Source of the DNA: an uncultured delta proteobacterium
GTDB lineage: Bacteria; Desulfobacterota; Binatia; UBA9968
Direction of reading: 5' to 3'
Length of the DNA stretch: 64,000 nt
Assembly: GCA_963816145.1 (NCBI GenBank)
Contig: CAWFJP010000003.1
Span: forward strand, 64,001 to 128,000
Shown here: positions 20,130 to 40,019 of the stretch, piece by piece
Layout of the letters: each line of letters begins with the position of its first letter
Numbering within the stretch: the first letter of the stretch is position 1
The notes under the pieces: generated by a model
The model's input: the letters and a program-made list of their open reading frames with translations, nothing else
The model's database searches: none
Told to the model about the DNA's origin: nothing
Translations under genes and position numbers: made by a program

Positions 20130-20163
20130 AGCCTACCCTAACTTTCGTCTACGGTCGTTCGAT

Positions 20164-21071: not shown

Positions 21072-21375
21072 TGGAAAAGGGTTGGCTCGGCATGACGCAG
21101 TAGTTTCAGCGCGTCCGTTCGTCCAATCGTGGGCGCCGTCAGGGTTTCCGACGCAGACCATCGGCTTTGCGCGGGTACGAAATGTTACGCACCATGGATT
21201 CGCTTGGCTCAACCATCCGACGGGACAGCTTTAGGCGTGCAACAGGGCGTGGGTGATGCGCCCGTAAAGCGACAGCATATCGCCGTTGACTCCTACCTTC
21301 GCGATTTGACAGGAAAAATCAGAAACTGTAACCCTATTGGAAAGAAATTTTAAAGTTATTTGTGGAGGAGATCCG

Positions 21376-22441: not shown

Positions 22442-22547
22442 AGAAAGAGATTTCGGAAACGGATTATTCCCGCAAAGGCGCAAAGACACCAAGGTAGGAA
22501 GAGGCTAAGGCAGCACAACGCAGACTGGATAAGGCGCGGCGAGAATT

Positions 22548-22631
22548 CGTCATGCCGGTGAAAACCGGCATCCATCTTCGACTTTGGCGCACCGATGATA
22601 GCCCTGAATTCCGGCCTGCGCCGGAATGACG
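22548..22631. repeat. palindromic MITE/REP-like element, copy 2
   Basis: cgtcatgccggtgaaaaccggcatcca...gaattccggcctgcgccggaatgacg; homologous to 17896..17976. Confidence 0.8.
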
Positions 22632-22701
22632 GAGGGAGGCGTCAGCTGTCAGTCAATGATTTCTGAGCCCCCTAGCTTGGAACCAAGGCGGTTCATTCCG
22701 A

Positions 22702-23379
22702 TTAGGCACAGAGCTGCGCTAGACGGGTCAGTTCCACTTCCTCGAGGCTATTTACGATGCTGTCGGCGTCTCGTAGCAGCTCGGCCGGATGCGAGTTGGT
22801 GACCGCCAGACATTTCATGCCGGCCCGCCGGGCGCCTTTGATGCCTTCTTTGGAATCCTCGATGACAACGCATTCGCTGGCATGAATGGCATCGTTATTT
22901 TGCGCATTCAACGTTGCCAGCGCTTTGAGATAGATATCGGGCTCGGGTTTACCCCGTTCGATATCCTCGGCGCTGACGATGGCTTTGAAGTGATGAATTA
23001 AGCCGACGGTGGTAAGGATGGTTTCAATCTCGTGGCGCAGGGCGCCGGATGCGACCGCCAGCGGCAGGTTGTTGGCCAAATCGGCGACGAGTTCTTTCAC
23101 CCCCGGAAAGATCGCGACATGGTTGCGGATCGCTTCCTGGTAGTAGACCGCCTTGCGGTCAATTAATTCTGTCAGTTTTTCATGGTTTAACGGCCGGTTG
23201 TGTTCGCGATAGCCAAAACTGAAGGCGCCGCGGTCGTCGAAGCCTAGGTAGCGTGCATAGTAGGCCTCTTTGCTCAGATCGATGCCTTCCTCGGCAAAGA
23301 CCTTCTGGAACATTTCAAAGTGGATCGGCTCATCGTCGACGATGATGCCATTGAAGTCGAAAATAACCGCGCGCAGCAT
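22702..23379 (-). CDS. HAD-family phosphatase (beta-PGM/CbbY-like)
   Basis: FDFNGIIVD motif I variant, VASGA, GKPEPDIY, IEDS. Confidence 0.88.
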   Translation of the reverse strand: MLRAVIFDFNGIIVDDEPIHFEMFQKVFAEEGIDLSKEAYYARYLGFDDRGAFSFGYREHNRPLNHEKLTELIDRKAVYYQEAIRNHVAIFPGVKELVADLANNLPLAVASGALRHEIETILTTVGLIHHFKAIVSAEDIERGKPEPDIYLKALATLNAQNNDAIHASECVVIEDSKEGIKGARRAGMKCLAVTNSHPAELLRDADSIVNSLEEVELTRLAQLCA

Positions 23380-23438
23380 GATTCTAACGTACAGGATTCG
23401 TCTTTTGTTTCAACGCGATCTGCGCTAGAAAAGCATCT

Positions 23439-23990
23439 ATGGCAACAGATCATCATGAGGCGCACCACGCTGGCCACGGGCATGGCCATGTCGAGTATCG
23501 CTTCTGTCCTAAGTGCGGCGGCGGTTTGGATAAGAAGATCGTCAAAAGCAATGAGCCCCACCGGCTGGTCTGCCAGGCCTGTTCGTTCATTTTCTACCAA
23601 GATCCCAAGGTAGTTGCCGGCACCGTGTTTACTTTGAACGGCGGCATCGTCTTGCTCAAGCGCGGTGTCGAGCCGGCGTTGGGCAAGTGGGTGTTTCCCG
23701 GCGGCTACGTCGATCGCGGCGAGAGTGTCGCCGACGCCGCAGTGCGCGAGACCAAGGAAGAATGCCTGCTCGACGTAAAACTCGGCCCTTTGCTCAATGT
23801 CTACTCCTACGCCCGCTCACCCAACGTGATTGTGGTTTACACGGCTGAAGTTATTGGCGGGACGCTCACCGCCGCCGATGAGTCGACCGATGCCGCGGTC
23901 TTTGCGCCGACAGACTTGCCGTGGCATGAACTCGCCTTCGACAGCACCCAGGACGCGCTCAAGGATTATATTCGCGCGTACCTGAAATAG
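23439..23990 (+). CDS. NUDIX hydrolase with N-terminal His-rich tail and zinc ribbon
   Basis: CPKCG..CQAC zinc ribbon; PGGYVDRGESVADAAVRETKEE Nudix box. Confidence 0.9.
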   Translation: MATDHHEAHHAGHGHGHVEYRFCPKCGGGLDKKIVKSNEPHRLVCQACSFIFYQDPKVVAGTVFTLNGGIVLLKRGVEPALGKWVFPGGYVDRGESVADAAVRETKEECLLDVKLGPLLNVYSYARSPNVIVVYTAEVIGGTLTAADESTDAAVFAPTDLPWHELAFDSTQDALKDYIRAYLK

Positions 23991-24175
23991 GAAAATCCTC
24001 CTCGATCCCCCTTTGTCAAAGGAGGGATGAATTCGCAAATCAAAGCAACTCGATTAGAAGGCGTCTTGTCTGCGGCTTGCGACGACAAGAGAACGCGGCT
24101 TCGCCGAGGAGTGACAACCGCAATCGGGATCAGTACAATTTCCCGCTTCGAAAAAGATGGGTTAGGGAGATTTCT
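23991..24175. repeat. inverted pair of REP-like units (aaatcctcctcgatccccctttgtcaaaggaggga / tcccgcttcgaaaaagatgggttagggagattt)
   Basis: Two degenerate copies in opposite orientation, each with an internal hairpin, between convergent genes. Confidence 0.6.
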
Positions 24176-24255
24176 GGATTGATGAAGCGCCATATAACGA
24201 AAGGCCCGCGAGCCTGAATGACGCTGCGGGCGTCGTTAAGTGAATGGGGATTGAG

Positions 24256-24564
24256 TTACCCTAAGTCAACCAGCACGTCGTCGCCTTCAACTTGAACTTC
24301 GTATTTCTCCGTCGGCAGGGCGGGGAGGAGTTCGTTTTCACCGGTGGTGACGTTGTAGCGCCAACCATGCCAGGGACAGATGACCGTGGTGCCGTCTATC
24401 TCACCTTCGGCCAGTGGACCGCCGCGGTGGCCGCAGACATCGTTGATCGCGTAGAATGTGCCGTCGATATTGAAGACGCCCACCGCCTTGCCGTTGATCT
24501 CTAAGCTTTTGCCGCAGCCGCCTTTGACATCGTCGGTTTTGCAGACTTTTACGAAATTGGCCAT
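24256..24564 (-). CDS. Rieske [2Fe-2S] ferredoxin
   Basis: CGH..GPL and CPWHGW ligand motifs. Confidence 0.92.
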   Translation of the reverse strand: MANFVKVCKTDDVKGGCGKSLEINGKAVGVFNIDGTFYAINDVCGHRGGPLAEGEIDGTTVICPWHGWRYNVTTGENELLPALPTEKYEVQVEGDDVLVDLG

Positions 24565-24627
24565 TGCCCAAGTTCCTTTCTGATCTGGAACAAATTTCCG
24601 CTTAATATACGGACTTGAAGCGTGGTT

Positions 24628-25716
24628 TCAAGGGGCGGGGTGACGAGTGGTGACAATCGGCCTCGTACTCACCGTCGCGCCGAATTCGCTGCCGTCGTGA
24701 TGCACCGACAACTTCGTGCCCGGTGTCCAGAAATCTTTGTTGACATAACCCAGGGCGATCGGTTTTTGGAGTGCAATCGAAGCCACCGAACTGGTGATTT
24801 GACCTATTTCCTTACCCCCCGCGCTGAGTTTGTCACCGGGACTTGCCGGCGTATCGCCTTCAACCAGCAGGCCGCAGAGCTTCTTATTGACATGACCGCG
24901 CGAACGGATGCGCTCGACGACCTCCTGGCCGAGATAACAGCCTTTATTGAAGCTTACGGCGTCGTCCAGAGCGACTTCGAGCAGCAAATAGTCTTCGGAA
25001 AAATCCACTCCATAGCGGGGGATGCCGGCTTCGACGCGCAAGGTATTCTGTGCCTGCGCGCCGACCCATGCTGCGCCCCGGTCGATCAACCGTTGGGCGA
25101 ATGCCGAAAGCTGTGCAGTTTGGACGATTAGATCGAAGCCATCGTAGCCGCTGCGGTCGGCGCGCACGACGCAGACCGGAGCGCCGTCGAACTGCACCAT
25201 ACCATGGTGATCGGGCTCTGCTGGCAGATCGGCATTACCAAAGACTTTCTCCAGGATCGCTCGCGCCCGCGGCCCCTGGAGCGACAGCATCTTCCACTGC
25301 TCATTGGGGTCGTGGATCTCCACCTCATCGGCGACCAGGTAGCGATTGAGATGAGTCAAAATCTTTTCTTTGAGCGGTTCCCAAAAATCCAAATAGAAAG
25401 AGTTCAACGAGCACAACACTCGGACATCGGCAATCACTTTGCCCTGCTGGGTGAGGATCGTCGCCTGCTGGCCGTCGAACATCTTCAGCGGTCGCAGATC
25501 GTTGGAGAGCATGCCTTGAAGATAAGACAGCCGATCGTCGCCTGTGAACTGAAGCATGGCGCGATTGGCGAGATCGAACAGACCAGCAAACTTGCCGACC
25601 GCTTGGTATTCGCGCGCCGGATCGCCGAAATGGTCCGGCAAGAGCCAACCATCTTGTTCGATGAATGCAGCCCCTTGGCGTTGCTGCAAATCGGAAAGGG
25701 TCGATCGCTTTGCCAT
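24628..25716 (-). CDS. ygfZ: YgfZ/GcvT-family folate-binding protein
   Basis: KGCYLGQEVV signature, LRVEAGIP, GcvT-like N-terminus. Confidence 0.85.
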   Translation of the reverse strand: MAKRSTLSDLQQRQGAAFIEQDGWLLPDHFGDPAREYQAVGKFAGLFDLANRAMLQFTGDDRLSYLQGMLSNDLRPLKMFDGQQATILTQQGKVIADVRVLCSLNSFYLDFWEPLKEKILTHLNRYLVADEVEIHDPNEQWKMLSLQGPRARAILEKVFGNADLPAEPDHHGMVQFDGAPVCVVRADRSGYDGFDLIVQTAQLSAFAQRLIDRGAAWVGAQAQNTLRVEAGIPRYGVDFSEDYLLLEVALDDAVSFNKGCYLGQEVVERIRSRGHVNKKLCGLLVEGDTPASPGDKLSAGGKEIGQITSSVASIALQKPIALGYVNKDFWTPGTKLSVHHDGSEFGATVSTRPIVTTRHPAP

Positions 25717-25834
25717 TGCTGCGAATATATACCGTCAAGCGCTGCCGTTGACAATGCCAATTGCTGGCTTGCGATCATTGATAGATAGATTAGCGGTGTG
25801 ATAGACAGACAGTATCTTATTACGGAGGTGCTTC

Positions 25835-26302
25835 ATGGCAGGACTCGAAGGGCAAAAAGCGCCGGCGTTCACTCTCGCGGGGAGCGACGGCAAACAGCAT
25901 TCGCTGGCTGAGTACGCCGGCAAAAACGTTATTTTGTGGTTTTATCCGAAAGACGACACACCTGGCTGAACCAAGGAAGCGTGCGGGTTCCGCGACGCTA
26001 TCGATACTGTAACCAAAGCCAATACCGTGGTTGTCGGTGTCAGCCCGGATGGCATCGATTCGCACAATCAATTCATCAGCAAGTTTAACCTGCCCTTTGT
26101 TCTGCTCGCCGACCAGCAAAAAGAGACTATGAAGGCCTACGGTGCTTGGGGACCGCGCAAGAACGCCCAAGGCGAAGTATCGGAAGGGACGATCCGTTCG
26201 ACGGCATTGATCGGCGCCGACGGCACGATTAAGAAACACTGGATTCCCGTTACCGATGCCGGCGCTCACCCGGCGGAAGTTTTGGAATTCTTAAATAAAT
26301 AG
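25835..26302 (+). CDS. bcp: selenocysteine-containing peroxiredoxin (BCP/PrxQ family), 155 aa, Sec at TGA 25967-25969
   Basis: RBS ggaggtg and ATG 25835 give MAGLEGQKAPAFTL...[19 protein letters not shown], in frame with the ORF 26027..26302 (GVSPD, RSTALIG). The TGA occupies the peroxidatic Cys position. Confidence 0.9.
25978..25999 (+). promoter_or_regulatory. putative bacterial SECIS hairpin (Prx 1)
   Basis: agcgt-gcgg-gtt-ccgc-(g)-acgct; apical loop begins with G about 17 nt after the UGA. Confidence 0.65.
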
Positions 26303-26316
26303 ATTTTCACTCCATC

Positions 26317-26361
26317 GCTCAGGGAGCGCTCCGTTCAATTCGCCGGTGGCGCTCCCTGAGC
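26317..26361. other. 13-bp perfect stem-loop between Prx 1 and LysR
   Basis: gctcagggagcgc ... gcgctccctgagc, no U-tract; possible mRNA stabiliser or processing site. Confidence 0.6.
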
Positions 26362-26380
26362 TACCCGCTTCACCTATTCC

Positions 26381-27289
26381 ATGGCCAAAGTCAAAGCCGA
26401 TCTTGATCTCCACAAACTAGAAATTTTCTACTGGGTGGCTGAACAGAAGAGTTTTTCTCAAGCTGCCGAATTGTTATCTCTGCGCCAGCCAACCATAAGT
26501 GCTCACGTGCAAGAACTCGAGAAGGCGGTGGGCGGCAAGCTGCTCTACCGCATGCCGGGGAAAGTCAGTCTGACGCCGCTCGGTCTCATGCTCGCCGAAC
26601 GGGCGAAGAATCTGCTCAGTTTCAAGCGCGAAACCATCGCCGCTGTGGAACAGTTTCACGGCACGCTTAGCGGCGAACTTTGGGTCGGTGGTAGCAGCAT
26701 TCCCGGTGAATATCTTTTGCCGCAGAAATTGGGCGAGTTCACCAAGAAGTATCCGAAGGTGAAACCGATCCTGCGCATCGGCGATTCCGCCGGTATCATT
26801 ACCGAACTGATCGAAGGGAAAGTCGAGATCGGCTTTGTCGGCTTTAAAGGCGACGATGGCCGGCTCACCTTCGAGAAGATCTGGGACGATGAAATGGTCG
26901 TGGCGGTACCCAAAGGTCACCCCTGGACCAGGCGTAAAGCCATCGAAGTCGCCGATCTGCGCAATGAAAAATTCATCTCACGCGAACATGGCTCGGGAAC
27001 TCTGGACTCCTTACGCCAATTGCTAGCCAAGCACAAACCACCCGGCGAGCTTTTGAACATCACCATGGAACTCGGTAGCACAGAGGCGGTCAAGGAAGCC
27101 CTGATGGCCGGTTACGGCTTTTCGATCTTATCGCGCATTTCGATCCAACACGAGTTAGCCGACGGCAACATCGTCGAGGTGCCCATCCGCGGCCTCAAGA
27201 TGGAGCGCGGCTTCTATCAAGTATTGCACAGCCGCCGGCCGCTCCATCCCATCGCGCAGACCTTTCGCGTCTTCCTCAAGACACAATAA
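26381..27289 (+). CDS. LysR-family regulator, CysL-like (resembles the selenium-metabolism-associated LysR type)
   Basis: HTH SFSQAAELLSLRQPTISAHVQELE; GGSSIPGEYLLP, REHGSGT, STEAVK typical of CysL-like substrate domains. Confidence 0.9.
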   Translation: MAKVKADLDLHKLEIFYWVAEQKSFSQAAELLSLRQPTISAHVQELEKAVGGKLLYRMPGKVSLTPLGLMLAERAKNLLSFKRETIAAVEQFHGTLSGELWVGGSSIPGEYLLPQKLGEFTKKYPKVKPILRIGDSAGIITELIEGKVEIGFVGFKGDDGRLTFEKIWDDEMVVAVPKGHPWTRRKAIEVADLRNEKFISREHGSGTLDSLRQLLAKHKPPGELLNITMELGSTEAVKEALMAGYGFSILSRISIQHELADGNIVEVPIRGLKMERGFYQVLHSRRPLHPIAQTFRVFLKTQ

Positions 27290-27333
27290 TCGCGGCCAAT
27301 TTTTTCAGGAAAAATTTGCCTGCGGGCTCTTTC

Positions 27334-27348
27334 ATAGCTATTTCCTAT
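27334..27348. promoter_or_regulatory. putative LysR box ATAG-N7-CTAT upstream of the sulfoxide synthase gene
   Basis: atagctatttcctat is a palindromic T-N11-A site in an AT-rich spacer 40 bp before ATG 27388. Confidence 0.5.
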
Positions 27349-27387
27349 TTAGTATATAGCTCAAATGAATTCGCGGAGGGCTGAGAC

Positions 27388-28746
27388 ATGGCACTGTCGC
27401 TGAAGAGCCGGGGACCGAGCGCCGCCGAGCAGTTGCGCGAGAGATTTGCCGCCGCTTGGGCTCGGTCAGATCAATTGTTCGCCATCGTGGGCGACGCGCA
27501 AACGTTGGCCAAGCCGATCGTTTGGCGCCATCCGTTTATTTTCTACATTGGCCATTTGCCGGCGTTCTCTTGGAACCAAGTGTGCGGCGGGATTCTCCAT
27601 TGGCCGTCGTTCAACAGCTATTTCGACGATCTGTTCTGCCGCGGCATCGACCCCGATGTCGACACTGGTGAATGCCATTGGCATCCCGAAGTACCGGACC
27701 AGTGGCCCACACTCGCAGAGACTGTTTATTATCGTGATCGGGTTCGCAGGGCGCTGCTCGATTCTACCGATGCGCTTGGCTATTGCCCTTCCACCGACCT
27801 GCTGGCTCAAGGCGGGCGCGTCTTCGAACTGATCTTGGAGCATGAGTACATGCACCAAGAGACCTTGATGTACATGATGCAACAGATGACGTCCGACGCT
27901 AAGCTCCGGCCGCGCAATTTTCCGCGCTATGCATTCGGACGAGCCGCAGCGAGGGAGACCGTACGGATTCCCGCGGGGAAAGCCCGTTTGGGGACGCGCT
28001 TCGATGAACTAACCTTCGGTTGGGATAATGAATTTTCCGAGATCACTGTGGACGTGGCTGGGTTCAAGATCGACAGTTTGCCGGTGACCAACGGCGAATT
28101 CTTTGAATTCGTCACTGTCGGCGCCTATGCCGATCCGCGCTATTGGCGCCCCGAGGACTGGCAGTGGAAGGAGCTGGAGCACAAACAGCATCCAACTTGC
28201 TGGCTCAAACAAACCGATTGCTGGTTTTATCGCGCCATGTTCGACATTTTGCCCCTCGAACAAGTGGCGAGCTGGCCGGTGTATGTGAGCCTGGCCGAAG
28301 CTCGCGCCTTTGCGAAGTGGCGCGGCCAACGTTTGCCGACGGAAGCCGAATATCAGCGCGCGGCCTATTACGGGCCCAGTGAACGTGAATCGACCTATCC
28401 GTGGGGTGATGGTGAGCCGAGTCCGCGCCACGGCAACTTTGACTTTGCCGCGTGGTCGGCCCATCCGGTCGGATCTCATCCCGCCGGAGCGAGCCGTTGG
28501 GGGGTGCAGGAGCTCATCGGCAATGGCTGGGAGCTGACCGACACACCGTTCGCGCCGCTGCCCGGATTCACGCCATACATGACGACCTATCCGGACTATT
28601 CGAAAGATTTTTTCGACGGCAAGCACTTTGTCGTCAAGGGCGCGTCATGGGCCACAGACAAGCAACTTTTGCGGCCAAGCTTTCGTAACTGGTACCAAGC
28701 CCACTATCCTTATGTGTTCGCCAAATTTCGCTGTGTCAGTGATTGA
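27388..28746 (+). CDS. EgtB/Egt1-like non-heme iron sulfoxide synthase (DinB + FGE-sulfatase domains)
   Basis: RHPFIFYIGHL, RGIDPDVD..CHWH.EVPDQWP, EHEYMHQETL iron ligands, RLPTEAE, GNGWE, RNWYQAHYPY. Confidence 0.85.
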   Translation: MALSLKSRGPSAAEQLRERFAAAWARSDQLFAIVGDAQTLAKPIVWRHPFIFYIGHLPAFSWNQVCGGILHWPSFNSYFDDLFCRGIDPDVDTGECHWHPEVPDQWPTLAETVYYRDRVRRALLDSTDALGYCPSTDLLAQGGRVFELILEHEYMHQETLMYMMQQMTSDAKLRPRNFPRYAFGRAAARETVRIPAGKARLGTRFDELTFGWDNEFSEITVDVAGFKIDSLPVTNGEFFEFVTVGAYADPRYWRPEDWQWKELEHKQHPTCWLKQTDCWFYRAMFDILPLEQVASWPVYVSLAEARAFAKWRGQRLPTEAEYQRAAYYGPSERESTYPWGDGEPSPRHGNFDFAAWSAHPVGSHPAGASRWGVQELIGNGWELTDTPFAPLPGFTPYMTTYPDYSKDFFDGKHFVVKGASWATDKQLLRPSFRNWYQAHYPYVFAKFRCVSD

Positions 28747-28771
28747 TATGGCCGGAGCGAAAGGAATCATC

Positions 28772-29053
28772 ATGAAAGCAATTTGGGAAGATGCCGTTGT
28801 CGCCGAGTCCGACCAAACCATTGTGGTGGAAGGCAATCATTATTTCCCGCCGGATTCGATCAAGAAGGATTGCTTTGGTCCCAGCGACACGCATACGACG
28901 TGCCCCTGGAAGGGTGTCGCTAGCTACTACAACGTGAAGGTTGGCGAAAAGGTCAACGCGGATGCCGCTTGGTTCTATCCCGATCCCAAGGAAGCGGCTA
29001 AGTCAATCAAGGATTATGTAGCGTTTTGGCGCGGCGTAAAAATCGCGGAATAG
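28772..29053 (+). CDS. DUF427 (nucleotidyltransferase-like) protein
   Basis: VEGNHYFPP, TTCPWKGVASYY, AAWFYPDPK, VAFW. Confidence 0.9.
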   Translation: MKAIWEDAVVAESDQTIVVEGNHYFPPDSIKKDCFGPSDTHTTCPWKGVASYYNVKVGEKVNADAAWFYPDPKEAAKSIKDYVAFWRGVKIAE

Positions 29054-29064
29054 GGATCCCGTCG

Positions 29065-29865
29065 ATGAAAGTTTTGCAGCTCGCCTCCTGCATGGCGGAA
29101 AATACCGAACCCTTCTGTAGCGCAATCGCCGAGATCCTCGAGATCGAGGTCGGGATCCCGTTTGAATATGTCACGGGAATTCCTTGGCAAGAACGCGAGC
29201 GTTTATTCGACTTGGGCGAAATCCAGATTCTTTGGCTGTGTGGCCTGCCCTATGTCAGCAAAGCCGATCTCGTTGACAGCGGCATGGAACTGCTTGCAGT
29301 GCCGGTCCCAGCGGGGCCGCGCTACCATGGGCGGCCGGTGTATTTTTCCGATGTTATCGTGCATCGAAAAAGCTCATTCGAGTCGTTCGTCGATCTACGA
29401 GGCGCCGCCTTCGCCTATAACGAGCCGCGTTCCCATTCTGGATTCAATGTCGTGCGCGCTTACTTGGCCGAACTCGGCCAGCGCGACGGTTACTTCGGCA
29501 GCGTCGTCGAATCCGGCGCCCATGCGCGGTCGATCGAAATGATTCTATCGGGCTCGGTTGATTGTGCGGCGATCGACAGCACTGTATTGGAGTGGTTCCA
29601 GGCTCAGCGATGGGTTTTTCGCGACGAGCTGCGCGTTATCGAAACCATCGGCCCTAGTCCGATTCCGCCCTGGGTGGTTTCGACGAAATTGTCCGCCGAT
29701 CTACGCTGCCAAATCCGCCAGCTGCTGCTGAAACTCCACTTACTTCCACGAGGCCGGGCCGCGTTGGCGCAGGCGCAACTGGCGAAATTTATTTCTGCCG
29801 AGGATCGCGACTACGACCCGATTCGCCGCATGGCGCGCGTGGCGGAATCGGTTTTGCTCGCTTAG
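29065..29865 (+). CDS. PhnD-like (phosphate/phosphonate-binding fold) protein lacking a signal peptide
   Basis: WLCGLPY, YFSDVIV, AYNEPRSHSG, SGAHARS, AAIDS, GPSPIPP. Confidence 0.8.
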   Translation: MKVLQLASCMAENTEPFCSAIAEILEIEVGIPFEYVTGIPWQERERLFDLGEIQILWLCGLPYVSKADLVDSGMELLAVPVPAGPRYHGRPVYFSDVIVHRKSSFESFVDLRGAAFAYNEPRSHSGFNVVRAYLAELGQRDGYFGSVVESGAHARSIEMILSGSVDCAAIDSTVLEWFQAQRWVFRDELRVIETIGPSPIPPWVVSTKLSADLRCQIRQLLLKLHLLPRGRAALAQAQLAKFISAEDRDYDPIRRMARVAESVLLA

Positions 29866-29931
29866 AGTCTATGCTAGAACATTCACCGTGCGCAGGAGCA
29901 CATCGCTAAGACAAGAAGGAGGTCAACGAGA

Positions 29932-30396
29932 ATGGCGAGTTTAGAAGGCAAGAAAGCGCCGGCGTTTAGCCTTGAGGGCAACGATGGCAAGAACCATTCG
30001 TTGGAAGATTACAAAGGTAAAACGGTGGTGATGTTTTTCTATCCAAAAGACAGCACCCCTGGCTGAACTAAGGAAGCTTGCGGGTTCCGTGATTTGAACC
30101 CCTCACTCAAAAAGAAAAATGTTGTCGTTCTTGGCGTCAGCAAAGACACCATCGAGTCGCACAACAAGTTTGCCGAGAAGTATCAGTTGCCCTACGTGCT
30201 GCTGTCGGACCCCAAAACCGAAGTCATGAAAAAATACAGCGCGTTCGGCAAGAAGATGATGTATGGCAAGGAAGTGCAGGGAACGATTCGCTCGACCGTT
30301 GTCATCGGCCCTAAAGGCGATGTAATCAAACATTGGCCGACGGTCAAGAAGGCCGAGGAACATCCGAAAGAAGTGCTGGCGTTCCTCAATGGCTAA
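29932..30396 (+). CDS. bcp: selenocysteine-containing peroxiredoxin (BCP/PrxQ family), 154 aa, Sec at TGA 30064-30066
   Basis: RBS aaggagg and ATG 29932 give [14 protein letters not shown]...[19 protein letters not shown], in frame with the ORF 30094..30396. Confidence 0.9.
30078..30092 (+). promoter_or_regulatory. putative bacterial SECIS hairpin (Prx 2)
   Basis: ttgcgg-gtt-ccgtga; same gcgggttccg core and same spacing from the UGA as in Prx 1. Confidence 0.55.
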
Positions 30397-31846: not shown

Positions 31847-32704
31847 TTACCGGCTCAAAGCTTCTTGGATCGCACGAGCGACATAAACATGAGTGAGATG
31901 AGCGCGGTATTCGGAAGATCCGTTGATGTCTTCGATCACTTCGATATTGCGCGTCGACTCGGCGGCCGCGTCCTCAATCAATTTTGCGTCGAGCTTCTTG
32001 CCGCTTAACATCTGCTCCGTACGCTCGGGGCGATAAGCTTTGTCGCCGACGCCGGTAACGCCAATCGCCGCGTGGGTGCATATGCCCGCGCTATCGACCG
32101 CCATGCGCACGGCGACGCCGGTAACGGCGAAGCCCGAGGAGCGCGGCGCGGCTTTCTGATACGCGGTCTTGTCGTTGCCGGTCACCGGCACTTTGATGCC
32201 GGTGACGATCTCGTCGGCTTCCAACACGCTCATCAGCAGCCCAAGAAAAAAATCATCGCACTTGACCCAGCGCTCGCCGTTTGGCCCGAAAACGCGAATC
32301 TCGGCGTCGAGGGCGATCACCGCTGCTGGCCAATCGCCGGCCGGATCGGCGTGGGCGACGCTGCCGCCGATGGTGCCGCGGTTGCGCACTTGGACGTCGG
32401 CAATGGTGGTCGCAGTTTGCGGCAGGAGGGGACATTTGACCTTGAGCAAGTCGGAATATTCGATCTGTTCGTGGGTGACCAGCGCGCCGATCACCAAGTT
32501 GTTGCCCTCTTCGCTGATCGTAGCCAAACCGGGGATGCGGCCGATGTCGACGACGTACCCTGGTTTCGACAGGCGCATCTTCATCAATGGCAGCAGACTC
32601 TGGCCGCCGGAAAGTATTTTGACGTCGTCTTTATGGTCCGAGAGGAACTTGACGGCGTCGGTCAAAGAACGGGGCGCGTAGTATTCGAATGCACCGGGAA
32701 TCAT
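31847..32704 (-). CDS. Mo-hydroxylase FAD-binding subunit (CoxM-like)
   Basis: GGQSLLPLMKMRL, IADVQVRNRGTIGGS, ADPAGD. Confidence 0.92.
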   Translation of the reverse strand: MIPGAFEYYAPRSLTDAVKFLSDHKDDVKILSGGQSLLPLMKMRLSKPGYVVDIGRIPGLATISEEGNNLVIGALVTHEQIEYSDLLKVKCPLLPQTATTIADVQVRNRGTIGGSVAHADPAGDWPAAVIALDAEIRVFGPNGERWVKCDDFFLGLLMSVLEADEIVTGIKVPVTGNDKTAYQKAAPRSSGFAVTGVAVRMAVDSAGICTHAAIGVTGVGDKAYRPERTEQMLSGKKLDAKLIEDAAAESTRNIEVIEDINGSSEYRAHLTHVYVARAIQEALSR

Positions 32705-32706
32705 GA

Positions 32707-35133
32707 CTAGAAAGTCCTCCGCTCTTTTTCCGGATTGTGATTGATCAGGCGCCACACTGCCTCCGGCGTGATCGGCAGTTCGCAAACCTTGGCGCCATAC
32801 TGTTGCAGTGCATCCTCCACGGCGCTGGCGATTGCGGCCGGCGACGGTATGGCTGCGCCTTCACCAGCGGCTTTCTGGCCGAGCGACGTAAACGGCGACG
32901 GCGAGGGTTGATGGATGACCTCGACACGCGGTGTTTCGGCCGCCGAGCATTTGCCGTAATCAAGATAGGTGATCGTCAGCGGTTGGCCCTCGGGGCTGTA
33001 CATGAAACCCTCGCCCAAGGCAACGGCGATGCCATGGGCCGCCGAGCCGTAGACCTGGCCGTTGACGACATCGGGATTGATCACCGTGCCGTTGTCACCG
33101 ACGATCAAATAGCGCAGCACGTGCACCGAACCGGTGTTCTTGTCGACTTCAACGATGGCGGCATGGGCGCCGGCGGAAAAGGTGAACTGCGCACGCACCT
33201 TGCGGTCGGCGCCGGGAACGATGTTCGGTTTGGCGTGGGGGAAGGTATAGTAGAAAGTCGCTTCCAATCCGGCTTCCATGCCGTCGGGGATCAGATGCTG
33301 GTTGTTGTAGGCGATGCGGCCCAACTCGGCGAAGGTGATTTGCTTCGCCGCCGCGCCGGGAACTTTGACCACGCTGTCTTCAATGATCAGTTCGGACGGT
33401 TGGGCTTTGAGATTGAAGGCGGCCAACTGCAAGATCTTCTCGCGCAGCTTGGTCGCCGCGCCATGGATCGCGCCGATGTCGTATAAGTGAAAGTTATTGC
33501 CGCTGTTGGCTGCTGCCACGCCCCATGCCGACAGGTCGCTATCGAAGGGGATGCTGGTGGAAATTTTGTCCGGCGACGCGCCGAGAACATCGGCGGCAAC
33601 CTGGGCCGTCGTTGTTTCGTGGGCCTGGCCGCAATTGGGCGAACCCAAATTGAGAGTCAATGTGCCGTTCTTTTCCAGTTTAATTTTCGCGCCGTTGACG
33701 CCGCCCGATCCGGGCGGTTCCTTCATCTCGGGAAAGATCGCCATGTCGCGGGCGGCGTTTCTTCCGCCGGGTTCGACGCCGACGACTACACCGACGCCCA
33801 GGAGCCGGCCTTGCTCGCGGGCTTCTTTCTGCTCGACCAGAAGATTGTCGTAGTCGATCTTTTCCAGCAGGGTTTTCAGCAGTCCGGGGTAGTCGCCGCT
33901 GTCGTAGACGTTGCCGCTGATGGTGCTGTATGGCATTTCATTGGCCTGGATCAGATTTTTTCGGCGCACTTCGATGGGGCTCAAATTGAGCGCTTGGGCC
34001 ACCCGATCCATCATCCGTTCCCAGATGAAACACATGCCCGGCTTGCCGATGCCGCGGTTTGGGATGACCGGGCACTTGTTGGTCACCACCGCGTTGCCTT
34101 CCATGTAAATGGCCGGGGTTTTGTAAGTATTCGACAGGTTATTGAGCTTGTTGGTGAAGTGAATCGTCAGCGTGCTGATGGTGCCACCGACGTCGTCATA
34201 TTCTTTGAACTTGAGACCGAGCACGGTGCCGTCGTTCTTCACCGCCGCCTCGGCTTCGACTTCCTGGTTGCAAGCGTGACCGCCGGCCATCATATGCTCG
34301 GTGCGGTCCTCGACCCACTTTACCGGCCGCCCGGTTTTCATCGCCAATAGCGAAACCAGCACGACGTACTTGCGGATCAAGTGAATTTTTTGACCAAAGC
34401 CGCCGCCGACATCGGGAATGATCACTCGGACGTCCTGCAGCCCTAGCGCTTCGCGCAGGCCGTCATAAATCACTTCCGGTACTTGCGCGGTTACCCAGAC
34501 CGTCAAGCGTTTGCTCGCCGCATCATAGGACGCGATGACGTTGAAAGGCTCCAATGGCGTCGAGCTGTAGCGATGGATTTTTAGTTTCTCGGTAACCACG
34601 CGATCGGCGGACTTGAATGCCGCGTCGATGTCGCCGTATTGCAGCGAACCGGTCCAGGCGAGATTGGTGCCGAGTTCGTCAAACAAAGCCGCCGCCGATG
34701 GTTTGATCGCCTCGTGAACGTCGACATTCGGACGCAGCGGTTCATAGTCGACTTGGATCAACTCCAGGGCATCTTCCGCCGTGCCGCGATCCCACGCGGC
34801 GACCGCCCCGATCGGTTCGCCGACATAGCGGACTTTGTCCACGGCGCCGGCGTACTCATCGATCGGGCGCTTCAAACCGGCGGCATAGCGGCCCGGCTTG
34901 AACGGCTTGGTCATTTTTTTAACATCGTCGGGGGTCACCACGGCAAACACGTTGGGTTGTTTGAGCGCTTCGGAGGCGTCGACCGACAGGATCTTGGCGT
35001 GGGCGTGGGGACTGCGCAGGATCATCGCCTGAAGCATGCCCGGCAATTTGAAATCATCGGTGTAGAGACCGCGGCCGGTGACATGGCGCGGCCCCTCTTT
35101 GCTGCGTGAACGGTTGCCTACGAACTTAGCCAT
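32707..35133 (-). CDS. Mo-hydroxylase large subunit (CoxL-like fold, not a CO dehydrogenase)
   Basis: LRSPHAHA, DVGGGFGQK, active-site loop PNRGIG, YDSGDY, KAAGE. Confidence 0.9.
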   Translation of the reverse strand: MAKFVGNRSRSKEGPRHVTGRGLYTDDFKLPGMLQAMILRSPHAHAKILSVDASEALKQPNVFAVVTPDDVKKMTKPFKPGRYAAGLKRPIDEYAGAVDKVRYVGEPIGAVAAWDRGTAEDALELIQVDYEPLRPNVDVHEAIKPSAAALFDELGTNLAWTGSLQYGDIDAAFKSADRVVTEKLKIHRYSSTPLEPFNVIASYDAASKRLTVWVTAQVPEVIYDGLREALGLQDVRVIIPDVGGGFGQKIHLIRKYVVLVSLLAMKTGRPVKWVEDRTEHMMAGGHACNQEVEAEAAVKNDGTVLGLKFKEYDDVGGTISTLTIHFTNKLNNLSNTYKTPAIYMEGNAVVTNKCPVIPNRGIGKPGMCFIWERMMDRVAQALNLSPIEVRRKNLIQANEMPYSTISGNVYDSGDYPGLLKTLLEKIDYDNLLVEQKEAREQGRLLGVGVVVGVEPGGRNAARDMAIFPEMKEPPGSGGVNGAKIKLEKNGTLTLNLGSPNCGQAHETTTAQVAADVLGASPDKISTSIPFDSDLSAWGVAAANSGNNFHLYDIGAIHGAATKLREKILQLAAFNLKAQPSELIIEDSVVKVPGAAAKQITFAELGRIAYNNQHLIPDGMEAGLEATFYYTFPHAKPNIVPGADRKVRAQFTFSAGAHAAIVEVDKNTGSVHVLRYLIVGDNGTVINPDVVNGQVYGSAAHGIAVALGEGFMYSPEGQPLTITYLDYGKCSAAETPRVEVIHQPSPSPFTSLGQKAAGEGAAIPSPAAIASAVEDALQQYGAKVCELPITPEAVWRLINHNPEKERRTF

Positions 35134-35599
35134 TTTTCATTCCCTTTGCCGCCTCTTTCACGGCGTCGACGATCTGCACATAGCCGGTGCACATGCAAAG
35201 ATTGCCGGCCAACGCTTTACGGATTTCGTCTTCCGATGGATTGGGGTTTTTCTGCAACAGCGCGTAGCTGGTCATCACCATGCCCGGCGTGCAGTAGCCG
35301 CACTGAAAAGCGTAGTTTTTGACGAACGCTTCCTGCACCGGATTGAGCTCGCCGTCTTTGGCCAGTCCTTCGATAGTCGTGATCTCGCGCCCATCGGCCT
35401 GCACCGCGAAATGCAGACATGACTTGACGACTTTGCCATCGAGCAGCACCGAGCAGGCGCCGCACTCGCCGATGACGCAGCCGACATGGGTGCCGGTCAG
35501 ACCTATGGTCTCGCGCAAGAAATGCGCGAGCAAAATACGCGGTTCGACCTCTTCTTCGTAGAGCCGACCGTTAATGGTCACACGAATGGTTTGCTTCAT
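35126..35599 (-). CDS. Mo-hydroxylase [2Fe-2S] subunit (CoxS-like)
   Basis: GCVIGECGAC, QCGYCTPG, NLCMCTGY. Confidence 0.93.
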   Translation of the reverse strand: MKQTIRVTINGRLYEEEVEPRILLAHFLRETIGLTGTHVGCVIGECGACSVLLDGKVVKSCLHFAVQADGREITTIEGLAKDGELNPVQEAFVKNYAFQCGYCTPGMVMTSYALLQKNPNPSEDEIRKALAGNLCMCTGYVQIVDAVKEAAKGMKNG

Positions 35600-35633
35600 A
35601 AGGAATCTAACCTAACTTTTGATACTGCAAGCG

Positions 35634-36494
35634 TCAACTAATCCGTTGGCAGGCTTCTTGAGCGGCACGGGGCACCAAGACTTTTACCAGCTCACGTTTG
35701 TAGTCCGCCGAGCCGCGGTTGTCGTCGGTGGGGTCGCATTCGCTGGCGGCGACTTCGCCCATTTCGCGGAGTAGGTCGTCGTTGATCGTTTTGCCGCGAA
35801 TGACGGCTTCTGCATTCTTGGCGTGGACGATGGTGGCGGAGACGGAATTTAAACCCAAGCGCACGTCTTCGCAGACCCCATTTGTCACTCGCAGCGTGAT
35901 CGCGACGCCCACGGTGGCGAAATCTTCGACGCTGCGCGGCGTGAACTTGATATGCGCCCAGCCGGTCCGACTCGGTGGAGGGACATGGATCTCAGTCAGC
36001 AGCTCGCTGGGCTCCATGGCGGTTTGATAGTAGTCGATAAAGAATTCGTCCAGCGGCAAAGTCCGCTGGCCTTTGCTACTGGTGAGCGTCACTTCGGCGT
36101 CTAACGCAATCAAGCTCGCGCCGGGATCGGTGAGCGGGTCGCCGCCGGCGAGGTTGCCGCCGATAGTACCCATGTTGCGGATGCGCGGTTGGGCGACTTT
36201 GCGGAAGGTTTCATGGAGCAGGGGATAGTGCTGCTTCACCGCTTTCGACAGCTCGATGTCGCGATGGCGCGCACCGGCGCCGATGCGCAGGCCTTCTTTG
36301 GCGTTATAAGTAATCTTGTCGAACTTCGGCAGCCGCGCCAAGCTGATCACGACTTTGGGGGTGAGCAGTCGTTGGCGCATCATGATGATCATCGATGTGC
36401 CGCCGGCCATGACCCTGCCGTCGTCGCCGTGTTTTTCCATCAAGGCGAAGACTTTTTTCAGCGTCGTCGGTTCTTGGTAGTCGAATCTAATCAT
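35634..36494 (-). CDS. Mo-hydroxylase FAD-binding subunit
   Basis: AGGTS, IRNMGTIGGN, DNRGSADYK. Start set at MIRFDY because the upstream in-frame extension is repeat DNA. Confidence 0.9.
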   Translation of the reverse strand: MIRFDYQEPTTLKKVFALMEKHGDDGRVMAGGTSMIIMMRQRLLTPKVVISLARLPKFDKITYNAKEGLRIGAGARHRDIELSKAVKQHYPLLHETFRKVAQPRIRNMGTIGGNLAGGDPLTDPGASLIALDAEVTLTSSKGQRTLPLDEFFIDYYQTAMEPSELLTEIHVPPPSRTGWAHIKFTPRSVEDFATVGVAITLRVTNGVCEDVRLGLNSVSATIVHAKNAEAVIRGKTINDDLLREMGEVAASECDPTDDNRGSADYKRELVKVLVPRAAQEACQRIS

Positions 36495-36526
36495 GCGTCT
36501 GCTTGCCCGTGGGCCAAAAGAGGTTC

Positions 36527-36613
36527 TCACCACGAAGGACACGAAGAGCACGAAGTTCGGAACAATCATTAGTTTCTCTAAACCCTTCGTGCCCTTCGTG
36601 AGCTTCGTGGTGA
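36527..36613. repeat. 9-bp-period inverted hairpin repeat (cacgaag-nn)3 / (cttcgtg-nn)3
   Basis: tcaccacgaaggacacgaagagcacgaag ... cttcgtgcccttcgtgagcttcgtggtga. Confidence 0.88.
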
Positions 36614-36646
36614 AAGATTTTTTCGCTTTCATGTCTCGTGTGCGGC

Positions 36647-38929
36647 TTATTTACTACTCTGTTTTTCCTTTAGGGCGCGAAGTATCTTTTCCGGTGTGAT
36701 CGGCAAGGTCTTCACGCGCACGCCGACGGCGTCGAAGATGGCGTTATTGATCACCGCTGCGGTCGGATCCATGTTGAGTTCGCCCAATCCCTTGGCGCCG
36801 AAGGGGCCGGTGGGCTCGTAAGAATCGGCGAAGGCATGTTGCAGCGGCGGCATGTCGCGCATGGAGGGAATACGATAATCGGAAAAATTGGGGTTGATCG
36901 GCCGCCCTTCCTCGATCTGCAAACCTTCGGTGAGCGCGTAGCCGAGGCCTTGGGCCAAACCGCCTTCGACCTGGCCTTCGGCGCCGATCGGATAGATCAC
37001 TGTGCCGCAGTCGGAGGCGACGACCATTTGCAGGACTTTCACCTGTCCAGTCTGAGGGTCGACGTGAATCTGCGCTGCTTGCACGCCGTAGTTGTACGCG
37101 CCCGATTCGTTGCCGAAGCGGGTGCTATCAGGGAGCACGGAGTCGGCGTCGAAACTGCCGGAGCCGACGATGGGCGCGCCGTTATGGCGGAACAGTCTGG
37201 CGCGGGCGACATCGGCGACGGTCACGGCTTTACCTTCGGCGCCCTTCACGAAAATCCTGCCATCCCGCGACATCATGTCGGCGGCGTTGGCTTCTAACAT
37301 CTCGGCGGCCTGCTCAAAGAGTTGTTGTTTAACGTTGGTGGCGGCGTTCTTGACCGCGTTGCCGCTGACATAGGTTAAACGGCTGGCGAAAGCGCCCAGG
37401 CAAAAGGTCGTCAGATCGGTGTCGGCGCGGGAGATTTCCACATCTTCCACCGGCACGCCGAGCTCTTCGGCGGCGATCTGGCACATCGCCGTGTGCACGC
37501 CCTGGCCGCATTCGCCTTCGCCGCTCAGGATCAGCGCCTTGCCGTCTTCGTTGATTTTGATTGTCGCCGAGCTGCCGTCGTAGTCGCCGAAGTGGCGTTT
37601 GCCGCTGACGTGAACGGTGCAGGCCAAGCCCAACCCCGTGTTCGGCGCTTTGTTGGCGCGCTTGGCTTGCCAGTCGATCATCTTCTCGGTCATGTCGAGG
37701 CACTGCTTGAGCTCGCAACTGGTGACGCGATTGCCGTGCGGCGAGACGTAGCCGACTTCGGCGGCGTTGATACGGGCGATTTCCAATGGATCGATGCCGA
37801 GGGCGTGTGCGCCCAGGTCGATGGCCTGCTCGACCGCCCATTCCGCCGAAGGATTGCCGAAGCCGCGGAACGCTCCGGTGGGAATCTTGTTAGTGTAGAC
37901 AAGCTTGGCTTCGAGCTTGACGTCGGAATACTTGTAGCAAGTGTCATGGCGCATCGCCGCGACGCCGGTGATCGCCGGCGCCTTGGCCGAATAGGCGCCG
38001 TTGTCGGCGATGACTTTCAGTTCTTTGGCACGGATGCGGCCGTCCTTTTTAAATCCCATCTTGACGTTGATCTTCATGAACACACGCGGTCGGCAGCCGG
38101 CCAAAAACTCTTCTTCGCGGCTGTTGATCACCCGCACCGGTTTGCCGGCTTTGCGCGCCAGCACGGCGCAGACCAGCGCATTGTTATCGTCGCAGGACTT
38201 GCCACCGAAGCCGCCGCCGACCGCGCTCTGAATAATCCGCACGTCGGTCTCGGGCACGCCCAAGGCCGTGGCGATGCGGTAGCGCGCATTGAACAGCGTC
38301 TGGGTGTTCATGTAGATCGTATATTTACCGTTGGGCGCATACTCGACCACGCTGCCGATGGTCTCGATGGCACAGTGCCACTGCGGCATGCTGGTGAAGG
38401 TGTCCTCGACGATGATGTCTGAATCGGCGAAGGCTTGGGCGATGTTGCCGCGTTCGAGATCCAAGTGCATGGCGATGTTATTCGGCTTGTCGTCGTGCAC
38501 CAACGGCGCGCCGTCTTGCATCGCTTCATCGGCATCGAACACACCCGGCAACGGCTCCCAGTCCACTTCGATCAAATCGAGCGCTTCTTCGGCGATATCG
38601 GGATCGATGGCCGCCACCGCCGCAACTTCTTCGCCGACGTAGCGGGTTTTACCGACCGAGAGAATATATTGGTCGGCAAAAAATGCGCCCCAGGGGCGCT
38701 TGATCGTGTCTTCGGCGGTGACCATGGCGCGGACGCCGCGCAGCTTCTCGGCCTTGCTGGTGTCGATGCTGCGGATGCGCGCGTGGGGATAGGGGCTGCG
38801 CAAGATCCTGCCGGTGAGCATGCCGGGCAAATGAATGTCGGCGATGAATTTGGAGTCGCCGGTGACTTTGTCGAAGCCCTCGACGCGCTGGACGCGCTTG
38901 CCGACGACGGAGAATTGAGATTTAGCCAT
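36647..38929 (-). CDS. Mo-hydroxylase large subunit (xanthine dehydrogenase / 4-hydroxybenzoyl-CoA reductase alpha-like)
   Basis: LRSPYPHARI, VGGGFGGK, GAFRGFGNP, EGQVEGG, GPFGAKGLGE. Confidence 0.92.
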   Translation of the reverse strand: MAKSQFSVVGKRVQRVEGFDKVTGDSKFIADIHLPGMLTGRILRSPYPHARIRSIDTSKAEKLRGVRAMVTAEDTIKRPWGAFFADQYILSVGKTRYVGEEVAAVAAIDPDIAEEALDLIEVDWEPLPGVFDADEAMQDGAPLVHDDKPNNIAMHLDLERGNIAQAFADSDIIVEDTFTSMPQWHCAIETIGSVVEYAPNGKYTIYMNTQTLFNARYRIATALGVPETDVRIIQSAVGGGFGGKSCDDNNALVCAVLARKAGKPVRVINSREEEFLAGCRPRVFMKINVKMGFKKDGRIRAKELKVIADNGAYSAKAPAITGVAAMRHDTCYKYSDVKLEAKLVYTNKIPTGAFRGFGNPSAEWAVEQAIDLGAHALGIDPLEIARINAAEVGYVSPHGNRVTSCELKQCLDMTEKMIDWQAKRANKAPNTGLGLACTVHVSGKRHFGDYDGSSATIKINEDGKALILSGEGECGQGVHTAMCQIAAEELGVPVEDVEISRADTDLTTFCLGAFASRLTYVSGNAVKNAATNVKQQLFEQAAEMLEANAADMMSRDGRIFVKGAEGKAVTVADVARARLFRHNGAPIVGSGSFDADSVLPDSTRFGNESGAYNYGVQAAQIHVDPQTGQVKVLQMVVASDCGTVIYPIGAEGQVEGGLAQGLGYALTEGLQIEEGRPINPNFSDYRIPSMRDMPPLQHAFADSYEPTGPFGAKGLGELNMDPTAAVINNAIFDAVGVRVKTLPITPEKILRALKEKQSSK

Positions 38930-38961
38930 ATTGGTTATCGTTGAGCGTATTCTTTCGGATT

Positions 38962-39047
38962 ATCTCTCGCAAAGACGCTAAGCTCGCAAAGGGAAGAACA
39001 ACTTCTTGGGTCTTAATACTTGGCGTCTTTGCGCCTTTGCGAGAGAT
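38962..39047. repeat. 8-9-bp-period inverted hairpin repeat (cgcaaag / ctttgcg)
   Basis: atctctcgcaaagacgctaagctcgcaaag ... cttggcgtctttgcgcctttgcgagagat; a half copy lies at ~22471-22493. Confidence 0.85.
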
Positions 39048-39057
39048 TGTCTTAATC

Positions 39058-39609: not shown

Positions 39610-40019
39610 GTCGCCGACCATAGCGTTTGTCGCCAATAGATTCAACGTTTCGGGCGCATAAAGGCTGGCGTGAATCGCCCGGGCTCCGAGACATTTTCCC
39701 AGGAGAATTGAATCCAAGATTCGTACTCGCCTTGCCTAGTGATTGGGCAAGCTGCCCGGATATTCGGCATTGGATGAATCACGATCTGTCCAATCCAGTT
39801 GTGAACCGGGTATATCCTGAGGGTTTCGAGATCGTACTAAATGATTTTGCCAATACGACGGTGGCGTGAAATCTTGCTCCGAAATTTCCCTGAGAGTTTT
39901 AATTGGACTGATGATTCAGTTGTGATATGGCGTCAATGTGGGTCGGGTTGCCTTACCATAATCCTGGTCGTCAGGGTTTCATTCGAAATAATTTACCGGT
40001 CGTGGATAAGGAGAACAGC

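Follow-up and report, generated by a model that had tools for sequence, protein, structure and literature searches.

INTRODUCTION

Peroxiredoxins with selenocysteine (Sec) at the catalytic site are an established selenoprotein family. The excerpted text of Zhang et al. 2006 (PMC1794560) counts 12 Sec-containing peroxiredoxins (Sec-Prx) and five Cys-to-Sec events, defines the family by a T/SxxU/C site, and reports two to three Sec-Prx copies in some genomes, with three in Anaeromyxobacter. In excerpts of a 2026 review (PMC13188914), the family is listed as 'Peroxiredoxin (Prx), PF00578, TxxU', and a figure legend gives the bSECIS model as a loop of 3–9 nt, a stem of 4–16 bp, a G in the first two loop positions, a spacing of 16–37 nt, and a minimum free energy (MFE) of −7.5 kcal/mol or lower. 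The excerpted main text of BSepDB (PMC13326102) mentions neither Prx, nor Binatia, nor LysR, and our literature search for Sec together with PrxQ or BCP found no dedicated paper.

Two other described systems are close. PrxU (NCBIfam NF040737, 'peroxi_PrxU') is likewise an AhpC/TSA-fold peroxidase with Sec. The Cys-type BCP/PrxQ enzymes (structures 5enu, 3gkk, and 5iiz; E. coli bcp) have the same length and FYPKDxTPG[C/U]T motif as the gene analyzed here, but Cys in place of Sec.

Here, we describe a gene at positions 29932–30396 (+) of a 64-kb stretch of DNA, hereafter called the window. As far as the excerpted family descriptions go, the gene has in common with the Sec-Prx family the PF00578 domain, the T-x-x-U site (T42-P-G-U45), a UGA at the peroxidatic codon, Cys-containing homologs, and a hairpin right after the UGA, and there is no essential difference between the two. 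Since every sequence-level feature of the family as excerpted was found in it, the gene counts as a new member of Sec-Prx. Judged by sequence comparison, it is a genuine, previously unannotated member of this established family, of the BCP/PrxQ type and not the PrxU type. The sequence-only reading had taken it for a selenoprotein gene whose catalytic codon is a UGA that hides it, and had placed an RNA constraint immediately 3ʹ of that codon; the comparative evidence below supports this interpretation. The window thereby adds two predicted Sec peroxiredoxins, located in a tandem region, in a Binatia-like lineage.

RESULTS

A BCP/PrxQ-type gene with UGA at the peroxidatic codon

The features of the gene are as follows.

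29916..29922 (+): Shine-Dalgarno-like AAGGAGG, 9 nt 5ʹ of the ATG, read from the sequence
29932..30396 (+): coding sequence of a predicted Sec-containing BCP/PrxQ-type peroxiredoxin, 154 residues and TAA, from translation, Pfam, NCBIfam, and structures
30064..30066 (+): in-frame UGA, codon 45, predicted to be read as Sec, aligned with the peroxidatic Cys of homologs
30079..30081 (+): codon of Cys50 (UxxxxC), the presumed resolving cysteine, which is Cys in 43/123 TGA forms among the matches listed

The frame had been proposed to carry TGA as codon 45, and the TGA was indeed located at 30064–30066. The gene starts with ATG and consists of 44 codons, the TGA, 109 further codons, and a TAA, so that read-through translation yields a 154-residue product, while standard ORF calling returns two fragments of 44 and 100 aa. 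The read-through product matched Pfam AhpC/TSA (PF00578) with an E-value of 2.5e-40 (137.7 bits against a cut-off of 26) and likewise matched Pfam Redoxin. The best NCBIfam models were PrxQ (NF053650), with 170 bits and a cut-off of 260, and bcp (NF006960), with 132 bits and a cut-off of 140. As both cut-offs were missed and the best models and nearest structures are still those of BCP/PrxQ, the product is expected to work like BCP/PrxQ without being an equivalog of either model. The nearest solved structures in the PDB were 5enu (E = 2e-30) and the Xanthomonas BCP structures 3gkk and 5iiz (approximately 8e-28). The cysteine of the TPGCT motif in the solved BCPs aligned with codon 45, so that the TGA coincides with the peroxidatic residue of the PxxxTxxC motif. 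The active-site motif of the product is P38-x3-T42-x2-U45, together with C50 and R120, the latter aligning with the conserved Arg position of solved BCP enzymes.

PrxU was considered as an identity for the gene and rejected: the product scored 44.3 bits against the NF040737 cut-off of 270 (a paralog in the window scored 38.1), and the model spans 233 positions compared with 154 residues here.

A diverged paralog with the same UGA

A diverged paralog with the same TGA had been predicted, and tblastn of the read-through protein against the window recovered it with 57.8% identity (E = 8e-58).

25835..26302 (+): paralog, second predicted Sec-containing BCP/PrxQ gene, 155 residues and TAG, with TGA at 25967–25969 (tblastn, Pfam)

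The paralog matched PF00578 with an E-value of 4.9e-36, and its TGA occupies the codon equivalent to that of 29932–30396. The nucleotide string said to be shared by the two genes, TGCGGGTTCCG, occurs exactly at 25982 and 30079, in the same codons of both. By itself the string is not rare, with three matches at one mismatch or fewer in the window against 2.68 expected, and its significance comes from its position in both genes. The string uses GGG for Gly, which was correctly described as a minority codon: GGG accounts for 157 of 1308 Gly codons in the 38 Pfam-supported ORFs of the window, compared with 766 for GGC. What lifts the pair of TGA genes beyond chance is that both have Pfam matches and that both are kept as TGA genes in syntenic relatives.

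TGA forms are widespread and the downstream part is under purifying selection

To follow the TGA forms across genomes, one genome per species was scanned with the pattern F-Y-P-x-[D/A]-x-T-P-G-TGA-T, which is anchored on residues before the stop; the scan retrieved at least 120 loci. The TGA forms were thus retrieved by motif, the scan set is not a random sample, and all counts from it are lower bounds. The matches listed from the scan and the two window genes together make up the 123 TGA forms analyzed below. According to record titles, the matches listed came from Acidobacteriota-type taxa, Planctomycetota, Chloroflexota, Actinomycetota, Gemmatimonadota, Myxococcota, and Firmicutes; Candidatus Binatia was named in 8 of the 120 matches listed, and cultured isolates were few. 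The pattern missed further TGA-interrupted peroxiredoxin genes, namely L008:13986–14441 (...TPG-TGA-IKEACGFRE...) and L026:15634–16059 (...FTGG-TGA-TLEAHNF...), the latter being a second copy in its locus, which means that the family of TGA forms is broader than the at least 120 loci retrieved.

The scan suggests that such a BCP/PrxQ-type selenoprotein is carried by at least 120 species-level genomes; these span many phyla and belong mostly to uncultured soil and sediment lineages, in which the protein is probably widely misannotated. Genes of this kind are split or dropped by standard gene callers, so the case has value for annotation. Geobacter, Anaeromyxobacter, and Syntrophobacter, which the excerpted text of PMC1794560 gives as Sec-Prx genera, recur among the matches listed. 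From this recurrence of genera among the TGA-BCP loci, and within the limits of those excerpts, we infer that the published Sec-Prx representatives are of the BCP/PrxQ type, like the gene described here.

Beyond the TGA, the frame was open for 94–115 codons with downstream homology (E < 1e-3) in 121 of the 123 TGA forms among the matches listed; the exceptions were L067, truncated by the end of its contig, and L009, without homology past the TGA. Random stops and decay downstream, which had been named as an outcome that would speak against a selenoprotein, were therefore not seen. Two relatives allowed closer comparison. Locus L006 is syntenic with window positions 18148–30379, with 9.8 kb of synteny at approximately 70% nucleotide identity; both TGA genes are retained in it, separated by 4,082 bp. 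L008 is also syntenic at approximately 70% nucleotide identity and keeps both TGA genes, the second being the above gene that reads ...TPG-TGA-IKEACGFRE.... Among the window, L006, and L008 orthologs, dN/dS 3ʹ of the TGA was 0.08–0.14 for 29932–30396 and 0.03–0.09 for the paralog, with dS of 0.9–2.2. Values of 0.03–0.14 at near-saturated dS indicate that the part 3ʹ of the TGA is translated and under strong purifying selection.

These data bear on the view that the gene is a pseudogene, or the product of a nonsense mutation or sequencing error, and gives only a 44-residue peptide. Such a view would account for the two fragments returned by ORF calling and for the thermodynamically unremarkable hairpin of the gene (see below). 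It is very hard to reconcile with the recurrence of this TGA in the paralog as well as in both orthologs from two relatives that have approximately 70% nucleotide identity, with the low downstream dN/dS, and with the open, homologous frames of 121/123 TGA forms; that L006 and L008 are assembly copies of one error is excluded by dS of at least 0.9. We consider it highly improbable, in line with the initial argument that independent errors or nonsense mutations are implausible, since both TGA genes are kept in L006 and L008 under purifying selection.

The genetic code and Cys-containing relatives

A change of the genetic code, with TGA as a sense codon for Trp or Gly, could also produce an open frame. 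Within the window, TGA ends 10 of the 38 Pfam-supported ORFs and is thus an ordinary stop, indicating no change of code there, and none of six other TGA-read-through candidate ORFs in the window contained a Pfam domain. The observation in favor of a sense codon is a W printed at codon 45 in three of the best 120 database proteins; against it, the tree pairs these W-containing proteins with TGA forms. A sense-codon TGA is scarcely credible and ranks last among the explanations weighed here.

For the protein-database comparison, the best 120 homologs were taken, all of full length and 80–89% identical to the 29932–30396 product; three have NCBI names with 'Candidatus Binatia'. Codon 45 is Cys with Cys50 in 116 of these best 120, Cys with Ser50 in one, and W in three. 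The W-containing homologs are P0005, P0015, and P0083, with 83–89% identity, and their pairing with TGA forms in the tree is what gene callers using a TGA=Trp table would produce. They are probably selenoprotein genes translated with that table in public gene calls, which would make their W spurious.

In a maximum-likelihood tree whose search was unfinished, so that its topology is indicative, TGA and Cys forms were interspersed in the clade of 29932–30396. On this tentative tree, the interspersed Cys forms suggest that Sec is dispensable in near relatives of the gene. The pair of genes in a tandem region with two SECIS architectures, together with the interleaving of TGA and Cys forms, may tentatively be taken to illustrate the published 'dynamic Sec/Cys' picture.

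A hairpin specific to TGA forms

To examine the RNA 3ʹ of the UGA, the U of UGA was numbered nt 1, and a hairpin was counted when it had at least six pairs and a loop starting at nt 20–27. Such a hairpin was present in 106 of the 123 TGA forms among the matches listed, compared with 30.5% of synonymous recodings (200 per gene, with the codon usage of each locus) and 64 of 242 control windows placed 120 and 180 nt deeper inside the same genes. Cys-type BCP/PrxQ genes differ in this respect, with the hairpin in 1 of 16 Cys-form bcp genes from diverse taxa other than those of the TGA forms. The mean MFE of nt 1–51 was −14.8 kcal/mol in the TGA forms and −11.6 kcal/mol in the recodings, and the best 5% of recodings was reached by 33/123 of the matches listed.

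Two main architectures were distinguished. In the first, found in 58 sequences among the matches listed, nt 13–20 pair with nt 24–32 around the loop G21-U22-U23 (GUU loop). In the second, found in 32 of the other 65, the stem ends at nt 24–27 and a later loop follows, typically CGUGAU(C/UU), with 30 distinct stems; this subset was picked because it pairs, so that its 'percent paired' is partly circular. Among the TGA-BCP genes, no fewer than two hairpin architectures therefore overlie one conserved peptide, ...ACGFRD..., which makes the family a clean example of two different SECIS hairpins at a shared peptide.

Covariation was assessed in the gapless alignment of all 123 sequences, unselected. 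For the GUU-loop helix, 66.0% of cells were paired compared with 58.0% after shuffling (reached by 0/500 shuffles), the covariation score was 0.256 against 0.148, and 104 cells were doubly changed against 51; as the sequences are phylogenetically related, these shuffle-based numbers are not probabilities. Every slid register scored lower, and a bulge-free version of the helix was likewise above its controls. Pair 20–24 was G-C in 66 sequences and A-U in 16, so that a change between Gly and Glu codons goes with a synonymous change between UUC and UUU, and pair 14–31 was C-G in 41 and G-C in 36 of the 123 TGA forms among the matches listed. For the later-loop helix in one fixed register, all 123 sequences gave no signal above controls, as expected from its minority use and varying loop lengths. 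Rfam searches at gathering and permissive thresholds gave no SECIS-type match, and returned tRNAs and two chance-level matches only. At the level of the sequences compared, the hairpin is specific to TGA forms and is backed by covariation.

The paralog has a clear hairpin of the first architecture.

25978..25999 (+): predicted SECIS hairpin of the paralog, nt 12–20 with 24–33, G28 bulged, loop GUU, −12.6 kcal/mol, pair probability 0.97–1.00

Compared with the bSECIS model, it has a 3-nt loop, 9 bp with one bulge, a G at loop position 1 (G21-U22), a spacing of 17 nt, and the above energy of −12.6 kcal/mol. The 37 nt from the UGA of the paralog, which include every hairpin position, are identical in the window, L006, and L008.

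Synonymous constraint had been put forward as support for a SECIS element, and this argument stood in part. At the family level, codon 51 was GGG in 56 of 70 Gly cases among the matches listed, compared with a GGG share of 19.6% in the long ORFs from these loci and with none of eight Cys-form genes, and Arg53 was encoded by CGC, CGU, or CGG only (112/112 among the matches listed). Among the orthologs of the paralog, conserved residues in codons 46–57 had the identical codon in 11/11, 12/12, and 11/11 cases, compared with 46–60% elsewhere (Fisher p = 0.0004–0.003). The argument did not carry over to the orthologs of 29932–30396 itself, where the codon-level alignment gave identical codons in 9/12, 5/8, and 6/8 cases over the SECIS codons and 51–58% elsewhere, an excess that is not significant. 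Nor did it hold for the paralog pair from which it had been drawn: conserved residues had identical codons in 5/9 cases in codons 46–56 and in 32/59 in the rest of the gene.

Which hairpin serves 29932–30396

Two hairpins can be drawn directly 3ʹ of the UGA of 29932–30396.

30082..30101 (+): most likely SECIS hairpin, stem GGGUUC/GAACCC (nt 19–24 with 33–38), 8-nt loop CGUGAUUU containing G26-U27, −8.5 kcal/mol alone
30078..30092 (+): weaker alternative, GUU-loop hairpin, nt 15–20 with 24–29, loop G21-U22-U23, homologous to the paralog SECIS, from folding

The later-loop hairpin at 30082–30101 folded with a pair probability of 0.94–0.95. Its 8-nt loop and 6-bp stem lie within the 3–9 nt and 4–16 bp of the bSECIS model, its loop starts C25-G26-U27 and so has the required G at position 2, followed by U, its spacing from the UGA to the apical loop is 21 nt (nt 4–24) within the allowed 16–37 nt, and its energy of −8.5 kcal/mol is below the limit of −7.5. 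The GUU-loop alternative had energies of −4.1 to −3.6 kcal/mol and a pair probability of approximately 0, and it falls outside the bSECIS model because −7.5 kcal/mol is required. The region as a whole is not unusually stable, with an MFE of −9.3 compared with −10.4 in synonymous recodings (z = +0.37).

In E. coli fdhF, the archetype, the SECIS places G23-U24 in the apical loop. The bSECIS consensus and fdhF share with the window genes an intragenic hairpin directly 3ʹ of the UGA, whose small apical loop lies at a fixed distance and has a G followed by a U close to its start (G26-U27 in 29932–30396, G21-U22 in the paralog). The predicted 29932–30396 SECIS has no sequence similarity to that of fdhF.

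The orthologs point in both directions. Only two of the 123 TGA forms among the matches listed, 29932–30396 and its L006 ortholog, are able to form both architectures. The L006 ortholog has the same later-loop hairpin, one pair longer in the minimum-energy fold and with up to eight consecutive pairs possible, with an energy of −13.3 against −6.7. The L008 ortholog can form the GUU type only; its minimum-energy fold (−12.2 kcal/mol) has seven pairs around a 5-nt loop.

The working SECIS might instead be the GUU-loop hairpin at 30078–30092, extendable to nt 11–32 and shared with the paralog. The L008 ortholog, with up to eight such pairs when G20-U24 is counted, would fit this, as would the family-wide covariation, which belongs to the GUU-loop helix, and the nine GUU-type pairs that 29932–30396 can make when G-U pairs and a bulge are counted. 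The folding energies, pair probability, and bSECIS energy demand given above all disfavor this hairpin in 29932–30396, and it is the later-loop stem that is strengthened in the L006 ortholog. We regard the GUU-loop hairpin as a possible but rather unlikely SECIS for this gene, and on the modeled folds we rate the later-loop hairpin as the probable one. With the later-loop hairpin as the SECIS, the gene would differ in SECIS architecture from both the paralog and the L008 ortholog, as if by a swap. GGGUUC, part of the string that had been singled out as shared, is probably the 5ʹ strand of the later-loop hairpin in 29932–30396, unlike in the paralog, where it belongs to the GUU-loop apex.

A model for decoding and catalysis

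Considering the above results, we propose that the gene encodes a thioredoxin-fold BCP/PrxQ peroxidase with Sec as the peroxidatic residue, its UGA being decoded via the hairpin within the coding sequence, and we put the probability of this reading at about 90%. The UGA at codon 45 would not be read as a stop. The hairpin starting 15 nt past the UGA (stem GGGUUC/GAACCC, loop CGUGAUUU) would recruit SelB carrying Sec-tRNA(Sec), so that Sec would be inserted. Sec45, activated by Thr42 and Arg120, would attack the peroxide, and the resulting selenenic acid would be resolved by Cys50 to give an intramolecular selenenylsulfide. A thioredoxin-type reductant would presumably reduce the selenenylsulfide, and the enzyme would cycle as a Cys BCP does. 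The gene leaves the knowledge of the Sec decoding mechanism itself unchanged.

Sec machinery and the selenium-linked neighborhood

Genes for Sec decoding were sought around the TGA forms. tRNA-Sec was not found in the 64-kb window (aragorn, Rfam), nor in 1.2 Mb of flanks of the 120 listed loci (aragorn), and selA, selB, and selD were not found among 50 ORFs scanned in the window. For selD, selA, and selB, the flanks of the 120 listed loci were screened with short motifs, a kind of screen whose negatives are weak; it gave five candidates, of which two were confirmed as selB (in L042 and L073) and three were spurious. The selB gene at L042:7761–9665 lies beside a TGA-BCP gene in a Binatia MAG and contains GTP_EFTU, SelB beta-barrel, and SelB-wing 2 and 3 domains (Pfam), and selB in L073 was likewise confirmed with Pfam.

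A regulator associated with selenium lies directly downstream of the paralog.

26381..27289 (+): LysR regulator, NCBIfam NF040786 'selenium metabolism-associated LysR family transcriptional regulator', scoring 267.8 bits (curated cut-off 250)

Among the 76 loci with flanks longer than 5 kb, L006 and L008 were the only ones in which such a regulator lay beside TGA genes. A literature search on the selenium-associated LysR family found no dedicated paper. This regulator, the two selB genes, and the recurrence of published Sec-Prx genera among the matches listed lend indirect support to a Sec-decoding trait in the genome.

This neighborhood bears on which residue is inserted. The UGA might be decoded via SECIS and SelB, or by near-cognate suppression, but as Cys or Trp, for example by a UGA-reading tRNA-Cys variant or under selenium limitation. 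UGA-reading tRNA-Cys variants exist. The selection and open-frame data speak for continued translation without telling which residue enters, the Cys forms at 80–88% identity are functional alternatives, and the unfinished tree shows Sec and Cys forms intermingled, all of which would be compatible with Cys or Trp. The agreement of the hairpin with the bSECIS model, the adjacent selenium metabolism-associated LysR regulator, and the standing of PF00578 with TxxU as an established selenoprotein family argue for Sec instead, and we consider the insertion of Cys or Trp to be improbable. Sec is retained as the residue that would be inserted.

Between the two Sec-BCP genes, at 27388–28746 (+), lies a gene for a protein with DinB_2 and FGE-sulfatase domains, of the EgtB/OvoA/SenA superfamily. 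It scored below all cut-offs (OvoA N-terminal, 259 against 400; EgtB, 224 against 360; selenoneine synthase SenA, 220 against 420), and it is conserved at 79% in L008 and, more weakly, at 34% in L006. The protein may be an unassigned enzyme that forms C-S or C-Se bonds in a selenium-linked neighborhood.

The order of the 4.6-kb block is Sec-BCP, selenium-associated LysR, EgtB/OvoA/SenA-like homolog, DUF427, PhnD-like binding protein, and Sec-BCP. Across the family, of the same 76 loci only L006 and L008 share the neighbors seen in the window. Promoter and terminator scans gave no more than the shuffled expectation. A speculative and improbable extension is that the block forms one lineage-conserved, selenium-responsive antioxidant unit, in which LysR couples two selenoperoxidases to the synthesis of thio- or seleno-histidine compounds. 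A SECIS swap in 29932–30396 is a separate part of this extension; if true, the clade of the gene, with its Sec/Cys interconversion, would provide a natural series of SECIS remodeling within a constrained coding sequence.

Other features of the window

The window also contains a gene at 49484–59593 (−) for a 3369-residue non-ribosomal peptide synthetase with three each of condensation, adenylation, and carrier domains plus a formyltransferase domain at the N-terminus, and a gene at 12840–14849 for a stand-alone adenylation-carrier protein. Three large subunits of molybdopterin hydroxylases (xanthine dehydrogenase/CO dehydrogenase family) are encoded at 4760–7063 (+) and 31847–39717 (−), two of them in full sets with FAD and 2Fe-2S subunits; some enzymes of the xanthine dehydrogenase/CO dehydrogenase class are selenium-dependent. 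An ORF at 14868–15575 (+) weakly resembles an IS110-type transposase domain, with 21 bits where the cut-off is 29. The region 21337–22441 (+) contains two ORFs that overlap, lie in different frames, and cover Amidohydro_2 profile positions 58–110 and 126–289, which looks like a frameshifted or misassembled amidohydrolase gene and not like TGA recoding.
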